In this document: piece after piece, positions 267-59,227 of the stretch | Position numbering within the stretch: the first letter of the stretch is position 1 | Layout of the letters: every line of letters starts with the position of its first letter | Origin: an uncultured Geobacter sp. | GTDB lineage: Bacteria; Desulfobacterota; Desulfuromonadia; Geobacterales; Pseudopelobacteraceae | Direction of reading: 5' to 3' | DNA: 62,796 nt | Assembly: GCA_964609805.1 (NCBI GenBank) | Contig: CAZSTJ010000001.1 | Span: 1-62,796 of the forward strand | Program-made: the position numbers and the translations under genes | Notes under the pieces: model-generated | Database searches by the model: none | The model's input: only the letters and a program-made list of their open reading frames with translations | What the model was told of the DNA's origin: nothing

Positions 267-284
267 AACCCAAAAAAGTATTTG

Positions 285-409
285 AAACACGGAGCAACTG
301 AGCAACTGAGTAAAACAAATAAGAAGGGTTCTTTGAGACTCACCGGTTTGTTGAATACGGCTTCTCATCCAAGATCTTGATTCTCAGTTGCTCCGTTGCT
401 CTGTGTTAT
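285..409. repeat. Inverted-repeat cassette (GAGCAAC 9-mer family), empty copy 1
   Basis: Left arm AAACACGGAGCAACTGAGCAACTGAG (285-310) is the reverse complement of right arm CTCAGTTGCTCCGTTGCTCTGTGTTAT (383-409). The spacer is 72 bp. The same arms recur at 46404, 51902, 54670 and 59073. Confidence 0.8.
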
Positions 410-468
410 TCGGACTGCCGTTTTAAGGAGACAGTATCCTGTTGTTTGATTTCAAAAGGGGATAATAC

Positions 469-4051: not shown

Positions 4052-4293
4052 GCAGGTCTCCTTTAATAAATCGTCGGAAAGTGCGGAGCCGGTTCCACTA
4101 CGTTTGAACCGGCCTACAGTGAAGTATCGGAGAGTGCAACAATTCGGCCGATATTTTCCGGCTCTATCCGGTTGATATTCGTAGGCCGTATCAAGCGGAG
4201 CGGATACGGCGAATGTTTCTGAATAACATCACCACGGTTTTGGACCGAACACCGTGCATGAATGACAGGCACCATGCCTAAAACATGGACAAC

Positions 4294-4317
4294 CGTTATA
4301 TAGTTTGGTATATAACG
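4294..4317. promoter_or_regulatory. ModE operator (molybdate-responsive) upstream of modEABC
   Basis: Perfect dyad CGTTATATA-GTTTGG-TATATAACG. It matches the known ModE box consensus CG-TATATA-N6-TATATA-CG and lies 108 bp upstream of modE. Confidence 0.65.
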
Positions 4318-4424
4318 ATAAAGAGCGTCCTGTTACAAAAGACTGAAATTACATGGTTAAATAAATATTGCGCTTGGCACGTTGATTGAAAAGGTATGCT
4401 TGGATGCGGTTGAGGTGACGACCC

Positions 4425-5240
4425 ATGAACAAACTAAAATCACATACAATTACCGCTGTCTCCGGGTCGGTAAACCTGAAGCGCAATGAACGCGAGTTCC
4501 TGGGGGTGGAGCAGATCCGCCTGCTCCGCCTGATCGACGAGCAGGGTTCCATCACCCGGGCTGCACAATCCGCAGGCATCAGCTACAAAACTGCCTGGGA
4601 TACGGTCAGTCTGATCAACAACCTGGCCGATGAGTTGTTGGTTGAGCGGAGTGCCGGCGGTAAAGGTGGTGGGGGAACCCGCCTGACCCCGGCGGGGAAA
4701 CGGATGCTTGAGCATTTTACCGTGCTCGAGGAAGAGCATGCCAGGTTCCTGGAGAACCTGTCACAGCGATTGGTCAACGGCGACCACCTCTACACACTGT
4801 TGAGGAGGATTACTATGAAAGTCAGCGCACGTAACGTATTCAGCGGAAAAATCGAACAGGTAACCACCGGAGCCGTCAACGCCGAAGTCACCCTGGCCCT
4901 GTCGGGGGGGGCACAGTTGACGGCGATTGTTACCAACGGAGCCGTGGCTAATCTCGGGTTGAAAGCCGGTATGTCGGCCTATGCCATTGTTAAGGCAAGT
5001 TCCGTCATCGTCGGCACCGATCTCCATGATGCAAAGGTCAGTGCCCGGAATATCTTCTGCGGTACGATTGCCAAGCTGCTGCCCGGTGCCGTCAGCGCCG
5101 AGGTGGATATCGAGATTGGCGGCGGTAACGTAATCAGCGCTATTATCACCAACGAAAGCGCCTCCCGTCTGGAACTGAAGGAGGGGGGGCATGCCTGCAC
5201 CCTGTTCAAGGCCTCCAGCGTTATTATCGGTGTGGACTGA
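4425..5240 (+). CDS. modE: Molybdate-dependent transcriptional regulator ModE (HTH plus two Mop/TOBE domains)
   Basis: N-terminal 'LRLIDEQGSITRAAQSAGISYKTAWD'. Two C-terminal 'SARN.F.G.I' TOBE repeats. Confidence 0.85.
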   Translation: MNKLKSHTITAVSGSVNLKRNEREFLGVEQIRLLRLIDEQGSITRAAQSAGISYKTAWDTVSLINNLADELLVERSAGGKGGGGTRLTPAGKRMLEHFTVLEEEHARFLENLSQRLVNGDHLYTLLRRITMKVSARNVFSGKIEQVTTGAVNAEVTLALSGGAQLTAIVTNGAVANLGLKAGMSAYAIVKASSVIVGTDLHDAKVSARNIFCGTIAKLLPGAVSAEVDIEIGGGNVISAIITNESASRLELKEGGHACTLFKASSVIIGVD

Positions 5241-25540: not shown

Positions 25541-25650
25541 GAAAAAAAACGGGTCACCATATCGTTGAGATATTTCGGCGACCCGGCTGTCTCAGGGAGA
25601 CCCTTGGGCTTTCCGTCCCATCCTCGCGGATGGTTTAGTATTATCGTCTG
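25541..25650 (-). promoter_or_regulatory. GEMM-I class cyclic-dinucleotide riboswitch with intrinsic-terminator expression platform
   Basis: The minus-strand RNA is ..ACUAAACC-AUCC-GCGA-GGAU-GGGACGGAAAGCC..GAGACAGCCGGGUCGCCGAAAU. This matches the Vc2 core GCAAACC-hairpin(GNRA)-GGGACGCAAAGCC...GGGGUUACCGAU. Terminator GGGUCGCC/GGUGACCC plus U8 lies at 25541-25584. Confidence 0.55.
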
Positions 25651-29861: not shown

Positions 29862-29962
29862 TGCTTATCGAGAGTGGTGGAGGGAAAGGCCCTGCGAAAC
29901 CACAGCAACCGGCCAATCAAGGCGACAGGTGCTAATTCCTGCCGAAAGGCAAAGATGAGAGG
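29862..29962 (+). promoter_or_regulatory. SAM-I (S-box) riboswitch
   Basis: CTTATCGAGAGTGGTGGAGGGAAAGGCCCTGCGAAACCACAGCAACCGG...AGGTGCTAATTCCTGCC..AAAGATGAGAG matches the S-box consensus (cTTATCaAGAG.GG.GGAGGGA..GGCCC..GAA.CC.GCAACC...GGTGCtAAttCC...AGATGAG). Confidence 0.85.
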
Positions 29963-33594: not shown

Positions 33595-33773
33595 CCGATC
33601 TGCTCCCGGTGCCTGAAAGTGGCGATGAATGTTTAATGAAACCGTATTTCCGTGAATATATATCAGAAATCGAGATAAATGGTAGCCGTTTTGATGAAAT
33701 ATTTCATTTTGACGGCACGCTGCCACGGATAAATTGAATTGACAGTGGACCGTCAATATTCTAGTTTATCGAA

Positions 33774-33856
33774 AACGCTGGGGGAGTTTCGACTGAGAGC
33801 GGCTGAGGGCCGCGACCCTTCGTACCTGATCCGGGTAATGCCGGCGTAGGGAAGCG
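33774..33856 (+). promoter_or_regulatory. TPP (THI-box) riboswitch
   Basis: CGCTGGGGGAG..CTGAGAGCGG..ACCCTTCGTACCTGATCCGGGTAATGCCGGCGTAGGGAAGCG matches the THI element consensus (CTGAGA ... ACCCTT.GAACCTGATC.GGTAATACC.GCGTAGGGA). Confidence 0.85.
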
Positions 33857-33874
33857 CAAAAGTCCAGGACTTGA

Positions 33875-46403: not shown

Positions 46404-46515
46404 AATAACACTGAGCAACGAAGCAACGGAGAACAATTCATAAGGTATAAAATACTTTTCCGGTTTCCTGCTGTTGAATTCAGATTTTCTCAGTTGCTCA
46501 GTTGCTCCGTGTTAT
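46404..46515. repeat. Inverted-repeat cassette (GAGCAAC 9-mer family), empty copy 2, between two genes of the carboxylase operon
   Basis: The left arm is AATAACACTGAGCAACGAAGCAACGGAG. The right arm is CTCAGTTGCTCAGTTGCTCCGTGTTAT. The spacer is 57 bp. Confidence 0.8.
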
Positions 46516-50197: not shown

Positions 50198-50240
50198 ACA
50201 GTTACCATTCTGAAATTAACATAGGCCAGGAGGCATGATC

Positions 50241-51893
50241 ATGGGTATTTCCGACAAGAAGCAGCAGTGGGCAGATGTTGTGGCAAAAGGTCTGGCAAAA
50301 AGGCCGGAGCGCAAGGCTGAATTCAAGACGACTTCGAACATCGAAATGGAGCGCTGCTTCGCACCGGAATTCGAATACCCCGGATACGAGGAGCAACTCG
50401 GTTTCCCCGGCCAATATCCCTATACCCGCGGTGTGCAGCCGACCATGTATCGCGGCCAGTTCTGGACCATGCGCCAGTACGCCGGTTTCGGCACCGCCAA
50501 GGAATCCAACGAGCGTTACAAATACCTGCTGTCCGCCGGGCAGACCGGTCTGTCCGTGGCCTTTGACCTGCCGACCCAGATGGGCTACGACTCCGACGCC
50601 GGCATGAGTATGGGCGAGGTGGGCAAGGTCGGCGTCGCCATCGACTCTCTGGCCGATATGGAGATCCTCTTCGACGGGATCCCGCTGGACAAGGTCTCCA
50701 CCTCCATGACCATCAACTCCACCGCAGCCATCCTGCTCTGCATGTACATCGCCGTGGCGGAGAAGCAGGGAGTCTCAGCCGCCCAGATCTCCGGCACGAT
50801 CCAGAATGACATCCTCAAGGAGTACATGGCCCGCGGCACCTACATCTACCCGCCGAAGGAGTCCATGCGGATCATCACCGACATCTTTGCCTACTGCAAA
50901 GACAATGTGCCCAAGTGGAACACCATCTCCATCTCCGGCTACCATATCCGCGAAGCGGGCTCCTCAGCCGTGCAGGAAGTGGCCTTCACCCTGGCCGACG
51001 GCATCGCCTACGTTGACGCCGCCATCAAGGCCGGTCTGGCGGTTGATGACTTCGCACCGCGTCTGGCTTTCTTCTTCAACGCCCACAACAACCTGTTCGA
51101 AGAGGTAGCCAAGTTCCGTGCCGCCCGCCGCCTCTGGGCCAAGATCATGAAAGACCGCTTCGGCGCCAAGGACCCCAAGTCCCAGATGCTCCGCTTCCAT
51201 ACCCAGACGGCAGGGTGCACCCTGACCGCCCAGCAGCCGGATAACAACATCATGCGGGTCACTATTCAGGCCCTCGCAGCCGTTCTGGGCGGCACCCAGT
51301 CGCTGCACACCAACTCCCGCGATGAGGCGTTGGCCCTGCCGACGGAGGATTCGGTCCGCATCGCCCTGCGTACCCAGCAGGTTATTGCCTATGAATCGGG
51401 CGCCGCAGACTCCATCGACCCGCTGGCCGGTTCGTTCCTGGTTGAGTCGTTGACCGATCAGATCGAGAAGGCGGCTCAGGAGTACATCGACAAGATCGAC
51501 TCCCTCGGCGGTGCTGTCGAGGCGATCTCCCGCGGTTTCCAGCAAAAGGAGATCCAGGATTCGGCCTATGCCTACCAGAAAGACATTGAAAAGGAAGAAC
51601 TGATTATCGTCGGCGTCAACAAGTTCACCGTCAGTGGTGAAACCCCGCCGGAACTGCTCAAGGTAAAGGAAGAGGTGGAGATTGCCCAGAAGGCTTCACT
51701 TGCCGCCATGAAGTCCGGTCGTGACGAAGCGGCAGTCAAGGCTGCTCTGGCACAGTTGGAGGTGGTTGCCAAAGGAACCGACAACGTGATGCCGCACATC
51801 CTGGCTGCGGTCAAGACCTACGCCACTCTCGGCGAAATCGCCGATGTCTTCCGCGGGGTATTCGGGAAGCATACAGAGACGGTGGTTCTGTAA
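50241..51893 (+). CDS. Methylmalonyl-CoA mutase, catalytic (large) subunit without B12-binding domain
   Basis: '[29 protein letters not shown]', '[17 protein letters not shown]', '[10 protein letters not shown]'. It ends before any DxHxxG B12 domain. ATG 50241 has better SD spacing than 50235. Confidence 0.9.
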
Positions 51894-51901
51894 AGACACG
51901 G

Positions 51902-52340
51902 GAATAACACGGAGCAACGGTGCAACGGAGATGAAGCTTTTTGATTCTGAGTTGACAGACCAGATCATTGGCAGCGCGATCACAGTGCACAGCACCTTGG
52001 GACCCGGTCTTCTGGAGTCCGTGTATGAAACGTGCCTGGAGTATGAATTGAGTTCTGTAGGCTTGAAGGTGGAGAGGCAAAAAAGTCTGCCGGTCAGCTA
52101 CAAAAGTATCAAGCTGGATGATGGCTTACGTATGGATATGGTTGTAAACAGCCAGGTCATCATTGAACTAAAATGTGTTGAAAGCCTGTTACCTGTTCAC
52201 GAAGCGCAGCTTTACACTTACCTGAAACTTTCCGGAATTCGAACAGGGTTGTTAATCAATTTCTATACGAAGCTTCTGAAAGACGGTATAAAGCGAATTG
52301 TTTGTTGATTTTCTCCGTTGCTCTGTTGCTCCGTGTTATC
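51902..52340 (+). mobile_element. Inverted-repeat cassette (GAGCAAC 9-mer family) carrying a GxxExxY gene; putative IVS-like/mobile cassette
   Basis: The arms are GAATAACACGGAGCAACGGTGCAACGGAG (51902-51930) and CTCCGTTGCTCTGTTGCTCCGTGTTATC (52313-52340). They abut the start and stop of the enclosed ORF. It is inserted between the mutase and epimerase genes. Confidence 0.5.
51931..52308 (+). CDS. GxxExxY protein (PD-(D/E)XK nuclease superfamily)
   Basis: 125 aa. Carries 'GPGLLESVYE' (the GxxExxY motif), 'MDMVV', 'IELKCV'. The ATG directly follows the left repeat arm; the ORF-track start 51844 overlaps the mutase 3' end. Confidence 0.8.
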   Translation: MKLFDSELTDQIIGSAITVHSTLGPGLLESVYETCLEYELSSVGLKVERQKSLPVSYKSIKLDDGLRMDMVVNSQVIIELKCVESLLPVHEAQLYTYLKLSGIRTGLLINFYTKLLKDGIKRIVC

Positions 52341-52355: not shown

Positions 52356-52763
52356 ATGCTCACAAAAATCAACCATATAGGTGTCGCCGTCAAATCACTC
52401 GACGAGACCCTCCCGTTCTATCGCGATGTTCTCGGCATGCCCTTTGCCGGTATTGAAGAGGTCGCCGAGCAGAAGGTGCGGGTGGCTATGCTGGGGATCG
52501 GTGAATCCAAGATCGAACTGCTGGAGCCGACCTCCGAGGACAGCCCGGTGGCAAAATTTCTGGAGAAGAACGGCCCGGGCATCCACCATGTGGCCTACGA
52601 GGTGGCGGACATCGACGCCGCCATCGCCCGGATGAAGGATCAGGGGGCGCGAATGATCGACGAAACAGCCCGCAACGGCGCCCATGGGACCCGCATCGCC
52701 TTTGTGCATCCCAAGAGCAGCAACGGGGTTCTGACCGAATTATGCCAGTGCGGGCACCATTGA
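52356..52763 (+). CDS. mce: Methylmalonyl-CoA epimerase (VOC superfamily)
   Basis: 'INHIGVAVKSLDE', 'IELLEP', 'GPGIHHVAYEV', 'AFVHPKSSNGVLTEL'. Confidence 0.85.
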   Translation: MLTKINHIGVAVKSLDETLPFYRDVLGMPFAGIEEVAEQKVRVAMLGIGESKIELLEPTSEDSPVAKFLEKNGPGIHHVAYEVADIDAAIARMKDQGARMIDETARNGAHGTRIAFVHPKSSNGVLTELCQCGHH

Positions 52764-54669: not shown

Positions 54670-54806
54670 AGGCACAGTGAGCTACGGAAAAAACAGAGAA
54701 CAGCCCTTCTGGAAATTTTGACAGACAAAATTGCCTGTTTACTGACGGTGTATTAGTATTTTTCACTAGGTAGGTTTCTACGTTGCTCTGTTGCACCGTG
54801 TTATTC
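54670..54806. repeat. Inverted-repeat cassette (GAGCAAC 9-mer family), copy 4 with a degenerate left arm
   Basis: The right arm CTACGTTGCTCTGTTGCACCGTGTTATTC (54778-54806) is clear. The left arm GGCACAGTGAGCTACGGAAAAAACAGAG (~54672-54700) is only weakly similar. Confidence 0.45.
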
Positions 54807-59072: not shown

Positions 59073-59227
59073 GAATAACACGGAGCAACGGGGCAACGGG
59101 GAAAACCTGAAATGTATTCAAAAGCAAATCCTGGTTCAGAAGAGCGCCTTGGGGTGAGTTGACTTTTGTGGTCCAGTCCTTTGTTGTAAGGTGTTGCTTT
59201 CTCAGTTGCTCCGTTGCTCTGTGTTAT
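59073..59227. repeat. Inverted-repeat cassette (GAGCAAC 9-mer family), empty copy 5
   Basis: The left arm is GAATAACACGGAGCAACGGGGCAACGGGG. The right arm is CTCAGTTGCTCCGTTGCTCTGTGTTAT. The spacer is 99 bp. Confidence 0.8.

Follow-up and report, generated by a model that had tools for sequence, protein, structure and literature searches.

Why should a small nuclease gene, framed by inverted repeats, lie between the genes for methylmalonyl-CoA mutase and its epimerase? The question arises from a 62,796-nt stretch of DNA from an uncultured Geobacter sp., the whole of which we call the window. Here an MM_CoA_mutase homologue (50235-51893, + strand) and an epimerase ORF (52356-52763, same strand) enclose a GxxExxY / PD-(D/E)XK nuclease gene of 125 aa (51931..52308, +), in which residues E29, D69, E79, and K81 are intact. 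A purine-rich, GAG-type left arm (51904..51931, +) precedes the gene; it consists of three 8-nt units, ATAACAC-G-GAGCAAC-G-GTGCAAC-G-GAG(A), and its last base overlaps the start codon. Its reverse complement, the CTC-type right arm (52312..52339, +), follows the stop codon after 3 nt and is itself followed, 16 nt further on, by the epimerase start codon. Together the arms make a 28-nt inverted repeat, complementary at 26 of 28 positions (93%) with 380 nt between them, and the cassette as a whole measures 436 nt. The initial annotation had described a GxxExxY ORF of this length set within inverted arms, with the start codon at the left arm and the stop codon close to the right one, and all of these points are confirmed. 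Its reading of the arms as tandem 9-mers was wrong, the unit period being 8 nt. The arm structure is AACAC-n-GAG CAAC-n-GAG CAAC-n-GAG, with variable positions 8, 16, and 24, and the consensus has eight matches in the window at ≤3 mismatches versus 0.00 expected.

No promoter or terminator signal belonging to the cassette itself was detected, and the gene therefore probably relies on the operon transcript for its expression. In most relatives that carry the same cassette type (type A, below), the start codon overlaps the mutase stop codon as TAATG and translation continues through the left arm; in the window this start has been lost via a 2-nt indel, and the ATG right after the arm is used instead. 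Read further upstream, the GxxExxY frame has no stop codon as far as an ATG at 51844, within the mutase 3′ end, which gives a 154-aa ORF (51844-52308) that gene callers also report in two relatives (P0075 and P0090); this longer call is probably an annotation artefact. Elsewhere, the window holds three riboswitches over Rfam gathering scores: SAM (29862-29961), TPP (33770-33869), and c-di-GMP-I (25574-25649, − strand).

What kind of protein does the cassette encode? By profile, motif, catalytic residues, and fold it belongs to the GxxExxY / PDDEXK_3 family. It matches PF13366 (PDDEXK_3; E 6e-44, 149.5 bits against a cut-off of 22) and TIGR04256 (GxxExxY; E 1e-45, 154.4 bits against a cut-off of 35), each over the full profile length. 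PF13366 is its sole Pfam match, and the S23p four-helix-bundle family (PF05635) gave none. In an alignment of 77 sequences, the window protein and 76 diverse relatives, the invariant columns are G24, G26, L27, E29, Y32, D69, E79, K81, and N110, among which the whole PD-(D/E)XK catalytic set falls. The AlphaFold2 model of the window protein has a pLDDT of 95, and its best Foldseek matches are Cas4 SSO0001 and lambda exonuclease, followed by related RecB-type nuclease domains. A sequence search of the PDB returned no relative, PHROGs gave no match, and PADLOC gave a weak Cas4 match only. The family comprises 21,123 clusters at 50% identity (E ≤ 1e-3), patchily distributed, and is nearly absent from viral contigs, where only two loci were found. 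A published survey of the superfamily gives the function of PF13366 as unknown (PMC3424549). Our literature search found no description of the arms and no role assigned to GxxExxY proteins. Among the best 150 of the 21,123 family representatives, about 15 (P0121-P0131 and others) are double-length, with two GxxExxY domains, the second of which is without the catalytic Glu (GPGLL[R/A/P]SxY). The working unit may accordingly be a dimer, and some lineages may carry a fused pseudo-dimer with one active site.

The gene is not a degenerating passenger. Among same-site orthologues, pN is 0.10-0.23 while pS, at 0.73-0.97, is saturated; the protein is therefore under strong purifying selection, which bears out the expectation of a conserved ORF rather than a decayed pseudogene. 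Over the same comparisons the arms differ at 0-4 of 27 positions despite the saturated synonymous sites.

How stable is the cassette at this site? We compared genomes whose mutase is 86-92% identical to that of the window, and the mutase-epimerase spacer proved to be polymorphic. Type-A cassettes, with GGAGCAAC arms, are found in the window and in L024, L045, L099, L069, and L111 (Geobacter benzoatilyticus); their GxxExxY proteins are 72-85% identical to the window's, and the gene of L069 is frameshifted. Type B, with ACACAGAGGCACAGAG arms, is found in L098 and L125 (60% identity to the window protein for L098), type C in L204 (58%), and type D in L205 (64%). L206 has no gene, just a 30-nt spacer that keeps only TCTGTGTT, the outer end of the right arm. 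L203 (Oryzomonas japonica) also has no gene and carries an unrelated 156-nt palindromic insert at 2345-2500. In all, the orthologous loci comprise cassettes of four types, a single empty site, and a single insert of another kind. The flanking genes show the same degree of similarity in every genome compared, so that these differences reflect repeated cassette replacement and loss. A 15-nt relic of a type-A-like arm lies just upstream of the type-B cassette in L098. The findings that the initial annotation had named as counting against a mobile or IVS-like cassette (an identical cassette everywhere, arms nowhere else, and a decayed ORF) were not encountered. The L203 insert reads GTTGTTGAAAAA ... 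TTTTTCAACAAC around a GC-rich core, and in another relative, L209, a GC-rich insert (4491-4665) occupies the place of a window doublet, one of the gene-less arm pairs described below. The mutase-epimerase spacer seems to accept repeats in general.

Polymorphism of this kind at one fixed site between highly conserved genes is what a free-standing homing endonuclease could also produce. The nuclease would cut the empty spacer, repair would copy the cassette in by way of the flanking genes, and the arms would be incidental. PD-(D/E)XK homing endonucleases exist, e.g., I-Ssp6803I. The lack of target-site duplications is also compatible with homing: across 44 cassettes, no direct repeat of ≥3 bp was found beyond chance. 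A GxxExxY gene also directly follows the mutase large subunit in distant taxa (L149 and L160, mutase 54-59% identical). However, the empty site of L206 retains an arm relic, which speaks of loss rather than of a naive target, and two further features described below, the conserved arms of the family and the population of gene-less doublets, are left unexplained. We consider homing alone very unlikely. Among the matches listed, the gene-carrying type-A copies all occupy one orthologous site, and no recent transposition of the gene was seen. The window cassette is an old resident of the mutase-to-epimerase spacer, intact and kept by purifying selection.

If the arms were a peculiarity of this locus, little more could be said about them. 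They are not. We scanned metagenomes for diverse GxxExxY loci and obtained 80, with proteins 52-64% identical to that of the window, of which 75 had full flanks. In 55 of these 75 the flanking inverted arms score above the 99th percentile of shuffles, and in 48 of the 55 the score beats every shuffle; clear arms are missing from ∼25% of the diverse loci. All 55 arm-bracketed loci are of one kind, with arms of 25-45 nt built from three tandem 8- to 10-nt units around a 7-nt core, C-R-C-n-GAG (for example, ACCACAGAGGCACAGAGGCACAGAG, ACCGCAGAGAACGCAGAGAACGCAGAG, and ACCACGGAGACACGGAGACACGGAG), and with termini that are mostly TTCACC...GGTGAA. The window arm, with the core CAAC-n-GAG, is a variant of this tri-repeat pattern. 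An independent case, reached through a protein homologue, lies in a nuoK-nuoL spacer; the period of its arms is again 8 nt, and the neighboring genes overlap its start and stop codons. In many of the best 150 of the 21,123 clusters the arms are translated as extensions of the protein, at the N terminus (HRGTEGTE, RRDAET, ITRSNGATE) or at the C terminus (SASPRLGGE, SVSSVLSVV). Every arm-bracketed unit of ≥400 nt in all of the loci collected contains a GxxExxY gene. These results support the claim that the window harbors a discrete cassette of a recurrent kind rather than an ordinary operon gene, and a homing endonuclease would leave such arms, conserved family-wide, without an explanation.

Cassettes are co-oriented with their neighbors in ∼80% of cases, a proportion not clearly above the genomic background. 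Reversed or direct arm arrangements exist in a few loci (L149 and L160). In L149, from a distant taxon, the GxxExxY gene lies between the genes for the mutase large subunit and the B12-binding subunit (1400-2900); its arms come in reversed order, with the CTC-type upstream, and four further GAG-type arms follow in direct orientation at 2420-2720. In L169 (70-670), each spacer flanking the gene consists of a right arm, ∼20 nt, and a left arm. Such spacers are the abutting ends of neighboring elements and would fold as short hairpins; the gene next to this cassette resembles that for a succinate dehydrogenase iron-sulfur subunit.

The arms also occur without the gene. Four gene-less copies had been reported in the window, and three of them are indeed intact doublets, that is, inward-facing pairs of arms; near 54670 only the right arm survives. 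The first doublet (272..421, +) has its arms at 284-310 and 383-409 and folds as single-stranded DNA with z = −7.0. It belongs to an oriented, multi-genome family in which both the interior and the outer flanks are conserved (AAAAAAGCATTT ... TCGAACTGCCGT). The second (46405..46515, no strand assigned; z = −5.0 as single-stranded DNA) has a unique interior and separates the carboxyltransferase gene from the biotin carboxylase gene; in the orthologous spacer the Viby MAG carries a type-A doublet and L210 one of type C, and L209 and L211 carry no doublet. The third (59075..59227, no strand assigned; z = −5.3 as single-stranded DNA) lies between convergent genes, 3′ of the adenylosuccinate synthase terminator, and the orthologous position in L210 carries a type-C doublet. 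The decayed doublet (54670..54804, no strand assigned; z = −0.8) lies 3′ of a terminator; its right arm (54778-54804) is intact and its left arm degenerate. It is found in L098 and missing from L045.

Beyond the window, a scan for the arm pattern, with each species represented by one genome, located the type-A arm in at least 109 stretches; among the matches listed, nearly all are from Geobacteraceae or Desulfuromonadales. This supports the earlier claim that the arms are abundant outside the mutase locus. Pairing is the rule: 164 of the 206 arm matches listed form 82 inward-facing pairs, GAG-type then CTC-type, and the opposite order occurs in one pair. Most listed pairs span 115-145 nt. The gene-carrying pairs of 436-437 nt among the matches listed number five, every one at the mutase-epimerase site. 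Lone type-A arm matches in L090 (a Methanoregulaceae archaeon MAG) and L052 (a 1.3-kb contig assigned to a Burkholderiaceae bin) probably stem from contaminated bins and not from transfer. Six arm pairs of intermediate length (254-378 nt, in L005, L016, L019, L103, L007, and L066) have neither a GxxExxY gene nor a long ORF; the pair in L007 (2729-3084) contains an unrelated G-rich repeat, and that in L066 lies at 4108-4485. These may be doublets that have captured other DNA. Rfam returned nothing relevant to the element, either at gathering thresholds or at permissive E-values on the cassette and one doublet, and the arm is not present in the supplements on Geobacter "multicopy nucleotide sequences".

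How did the doublets arise? We considered and rejected the idea that they are deletion derivatives of the cassette, as their interiors have no similarity to the cassette interior. Of 71 doublets compared, 19 form one family, with a conserved interior and with outer flanks that are conserved and non-palindromic across genomes; the remaining doublets have only the arms in common. Since the members of this family share interior and flanks across genomes, doublets do multiply. In orthologous doublets the arms are kept while the interiors drift, and the interiors in orthologous spacers are too diverged to separate arm conversion from re-insertion. The oriented family to which 272-421 belongs lies mostly between convergent genes (8 of the 13 with both neighbors known), and on the reverse strand its members read as a long hairpin followed by GCTTTTTT. 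This family may have been co-opted as a terminator.

Observations of this sort also invite a reading in which nothing moves. The doublets would be regulatory or structural palindromes (terminators, mRNA stabilizers, or protein-binding sites), and the GxxExxY protein would be a domesticated housekeeping nuclease of the host, for instance one that processes hairpins or cruciforms, with no role in mobility. The long vertical retention of the gene under purifying selection, the preservation of arms over drifting interiors, and the enrichment of the oriented family between convergent genes, where its reverse strand offers a hairpin and then GCTTTTTT, are all compatible with such a function. However, the site is polymorphic and includes clean losses in L206 and L209 with no doublets nearby, the orthologous spacers of close relatives hold different arm types, and cassette contexts are very diverse across 21,123 patchily spread clusters. 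We regard domestication as improbable; the polymorphism, the mixed arm types, and the patchy contexts agree better with a selfish or symbiotic element than with a core function of the host.

If the doublets depend on the cassette, their arm types should follow that of the resident gene. We compared a few genomes in samples of ∼16-20 kb each, syntenic with 42.5-60 kb of the window. The window itself combines a type-A cassette with type-A doublets. In L210 the cassette is of type C, and so are the arms of each of its four or five doublets; two of the doublets sit in spacers orthologous to those of window doublets, and three form a genome-specific family with an interior in common. L211, with a type-D cassette, has two doublets, one whose arms are similar to those of the cassette and one whose arms differ. 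In L209 the site is empty, and 20 kb of sequence contain no arms. The Viby MAG is the exception, with a type-B cassette at the site and type-A doublets; the one trace bearing on this mismatch, the 15-nt arm relic, suggests a recent cassette replacement. Thus, for co-occurrence of repeat and gene as in the REPIN-RAYT system, the window, L210, and L209 fit, L211 fits partly, and the Viby MAG does not, within the ∼16-20 kb sampled from each. A cassette flanked by inverted copies of its genome's own dispersed repeat is found in the window (type A) and in L210 (type C). Over these few genomes and 20-kb samples, the matching would be the pattern expected if doublets need a cognate nuclease. It also lends support to the earlier proposal that the cassette protein may be a mobilizing or homing nuclease, since the arms agree between cassettes and unlinked doublets. 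Homing as such has no place for this agreement, nor for hundreds of gene-less doublets.

Are the arms then selected as DNA or as RNA? The initial annotation had predicted that they would pair in the mutase-epimerase transcript, and they do so in both the MFE and the centroid fold of the predicted transcript (z = −3.7). Sense-strand arm mismatches comprise 62 G·U and 82 A·C, so that there is no excess of G·U. Across 84 type-A pairs the 7-nt core is nearly invariant, and at the three variable positions the observed versus expected pairing is 0.67/0.51, 0.51/0.53, and 0.36/0.40, which is modestly above chance at one position and no higher than chance at the other two. The core motif is moreover kept across phyla. 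With no G·U excess, little or no covariation, and a core that crosses phyla, the constraint on the arms seems to act on the DNA-level sequence and not on an RNA stem. They resemble DNA sites that are recognized by sequence, not a stem under selection in RNA.

This distinction bears directly on whether the cassette is an RNA element akin to the intervening sequences (IVS) of 23S rRNA. Under that account the arms form a double-stranded RNA stem, RNase III excises the cassette RNA and so insulates the operon, and the ORF is selfish cargo. The 23S IVS of Coxiella is 428-444 nt long, with a 28-bp stem and one small ORF of unknown function (PMC4990558), and the 436-nt cassette with its 28-nt stem mirrors it; the arms also have the terminal complementarity of at least ∼20 bp expected of an IVS stem. 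They are paired in both predicted folds, the cassette lacks promoter and terminator signals of its own, and cassettes often lie within operons and share start- and stop-codon bases with the adjacent genes. However, in addition to the missing G·U excess (62 vs. 82) and the scant covariation, the primary sequence of the arm core is kept across phyla, which a stem alone does not need. Strong purifying selection on the gene is not what decaying cargo would show, and doublets often lie 3′ of terminators or between convergent genes. No rRNA motif was found in the ∼206 loci examined, and Rfam found no rRNA within the window. The related claim that IVS carry both four-helix-bundle and GxxExxY genes is confirmed by the literature for the former family and not for the latter. 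A search of the loci for four-helix-bundle IVS genes by the NIAEG motif found none. We judge the IVS-like account unlikely; RNase III probably cuts the ∼27-bp stem in the transcript, which would be a secondary effect.

We therefore return to the arms as DNA. Our favored explanation, to which we would give about even credence, is that a GxxExxY gene with terminal tri-repeat arms may constitute a widespread class of compact DNA elements whose nuclease would recognize its own arms. The evidence points to a selfish or symbiotic kind of element, in a class undescribed in the literature as far as we found. In this model the arms would be recognized sequence-specifically as DNA, most likely by a multimer of the encoded nuclease. 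Entry of the cassette into intergenic sites, or its replacement there, would leave no target-site duplication. These arms would also define non-autonomous doublets that multiply in intergenic DNA and that would depend in trans on the type of the resident nuclease. REPINs and their RAYT would be the parallel, with an enzyme of another class. Binding or cleavage of the arms by the protein, and any movement of DNA, are inferred from comparative sequence data. Several points weigh against the model. A 125-aa PD-(D/E)XK nuclease cannot join DNA by itself, and replacement at the mutase-epimerase site could proceed via ordinary homologous recombination in the conserved flanking genes. The type-A doublets beside a type-B cassette in the Viby MAG, the confinement of gene-carrying type-A copies to one orthologous site among the matches listed, the ∼25% of diverse loci that show no clear arms, and the few reversed or direct arm arrangements also count against it.

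A broader version of this proposal is possible, and we advance it tentatively. The GxxExxY family, with at least 21,000 clusters, may be the signature nuclease of a phylum-spanning class of minimal elements, one that maintains or mobilizes a ∼430-bp cassette and REPIN-like doublets without a known class of transposase or recombinase. If so, this would have several consequences. First, a role would be assigned to a very large protein family that has had no known function. Second, after REPIN-RAYT, there would be a second and mechanistically different nuclease with its own population of short repeats. Third, thousands of database entries have odd low-complexity extensions at the N or C terminus, which would be explained as translated repeat arms. 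Finally, the origin of the 23S rRNA intervening sequences could be approached from a new angle.

It is useful to contrast these elements with known systems. Integron cassettes with attC sites are promoterless single-ORF units whose imperfect inverted repeats fold in single-stranded DNA, and the GxxExxY cassettes resemble them in these respects and in swapping at a fixed site. By comparison, the ORF here is flanked by an arm at each end instead of a single attC at the 3′ end, the site shows no apparent integron-like array, and every cargo gene belongs to the one nuclease family. Free-standing homing endonuclease genes, such as seg and mob of phage T4 or the PD-(D/E)XK enzyme I-Ssp6803I, are likewise small nuclease genes wedged between conserved genes with presence/absence polymorphism. 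They have neither terminal repeat arms nor gene-less derivatives, and GxxExxY genes are nearly absent from viral contigs.

The Correia elements of Neisseria are intergenic MITEs of 100-160 nt with terminal inverted repeats of ∼26 nt; they are multicopy, co-transcribed with their neighbors, and can affect termination or processing. The doublets resemble them. Unlike MITEs, the GxxExxY cassettes have no TA or other target-site duplication (44 cassettes), most doublets share arms only and are not internal-deletion derivatives of the cassette, and the partner gene encodes a nuclease, not a DDE transposase. The 23S rRNA IVS of Coxiella, Leptospira, and Salmonella share with the cassette its size, a ∼28-bp terminal stem around a small ORF, a sporadic distribution, and a stem that would be an RNase III substrate, the cassette stem being a predicted one. 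However, the cassette lies between protein-coding genes instead of in helix 25 or 45 of 23S rRNA, and its ORF encodes a PD-(D/E)XK protein rather than the four-helix-bundle S23p. Its arms also have a conserved, repeated core with no sign of selection on RNA pairing, and its gene-less copies are scattered through intergenic DNA.

The closest parallel is REPIN-RAYT, in which REP doublets accompany a REP-associated tyrosine transposase, as reportedly described by Nunvar et al. in 2010 and by Bertels and Rainey in 2011. In both systems a nuclease-type gene lies between inverted copies of one short repeat, and the repeat also occurs as gene-less, extragenic hairpin doublets of ∼100-150 nt. The doublet type matches the resident gene, here in a few genomes only, and the gene is vertically inherited and kept by selection, with no target-site duplication. 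The dependence of doublets on the gene is, in our case, inferred from few genomes only. The enzymes differ, a 125-aa PD-(D/E)XK nuclease here versus an HUH/Y1 (IS200/IS605-like) transposase there, and so do the repeats, which here are three tandem 8-nt units rather than palindromic REPs with a GTAG head. Compared with REPIN-RAYT, the GxxExxY family is far larger and extends across many phyla.
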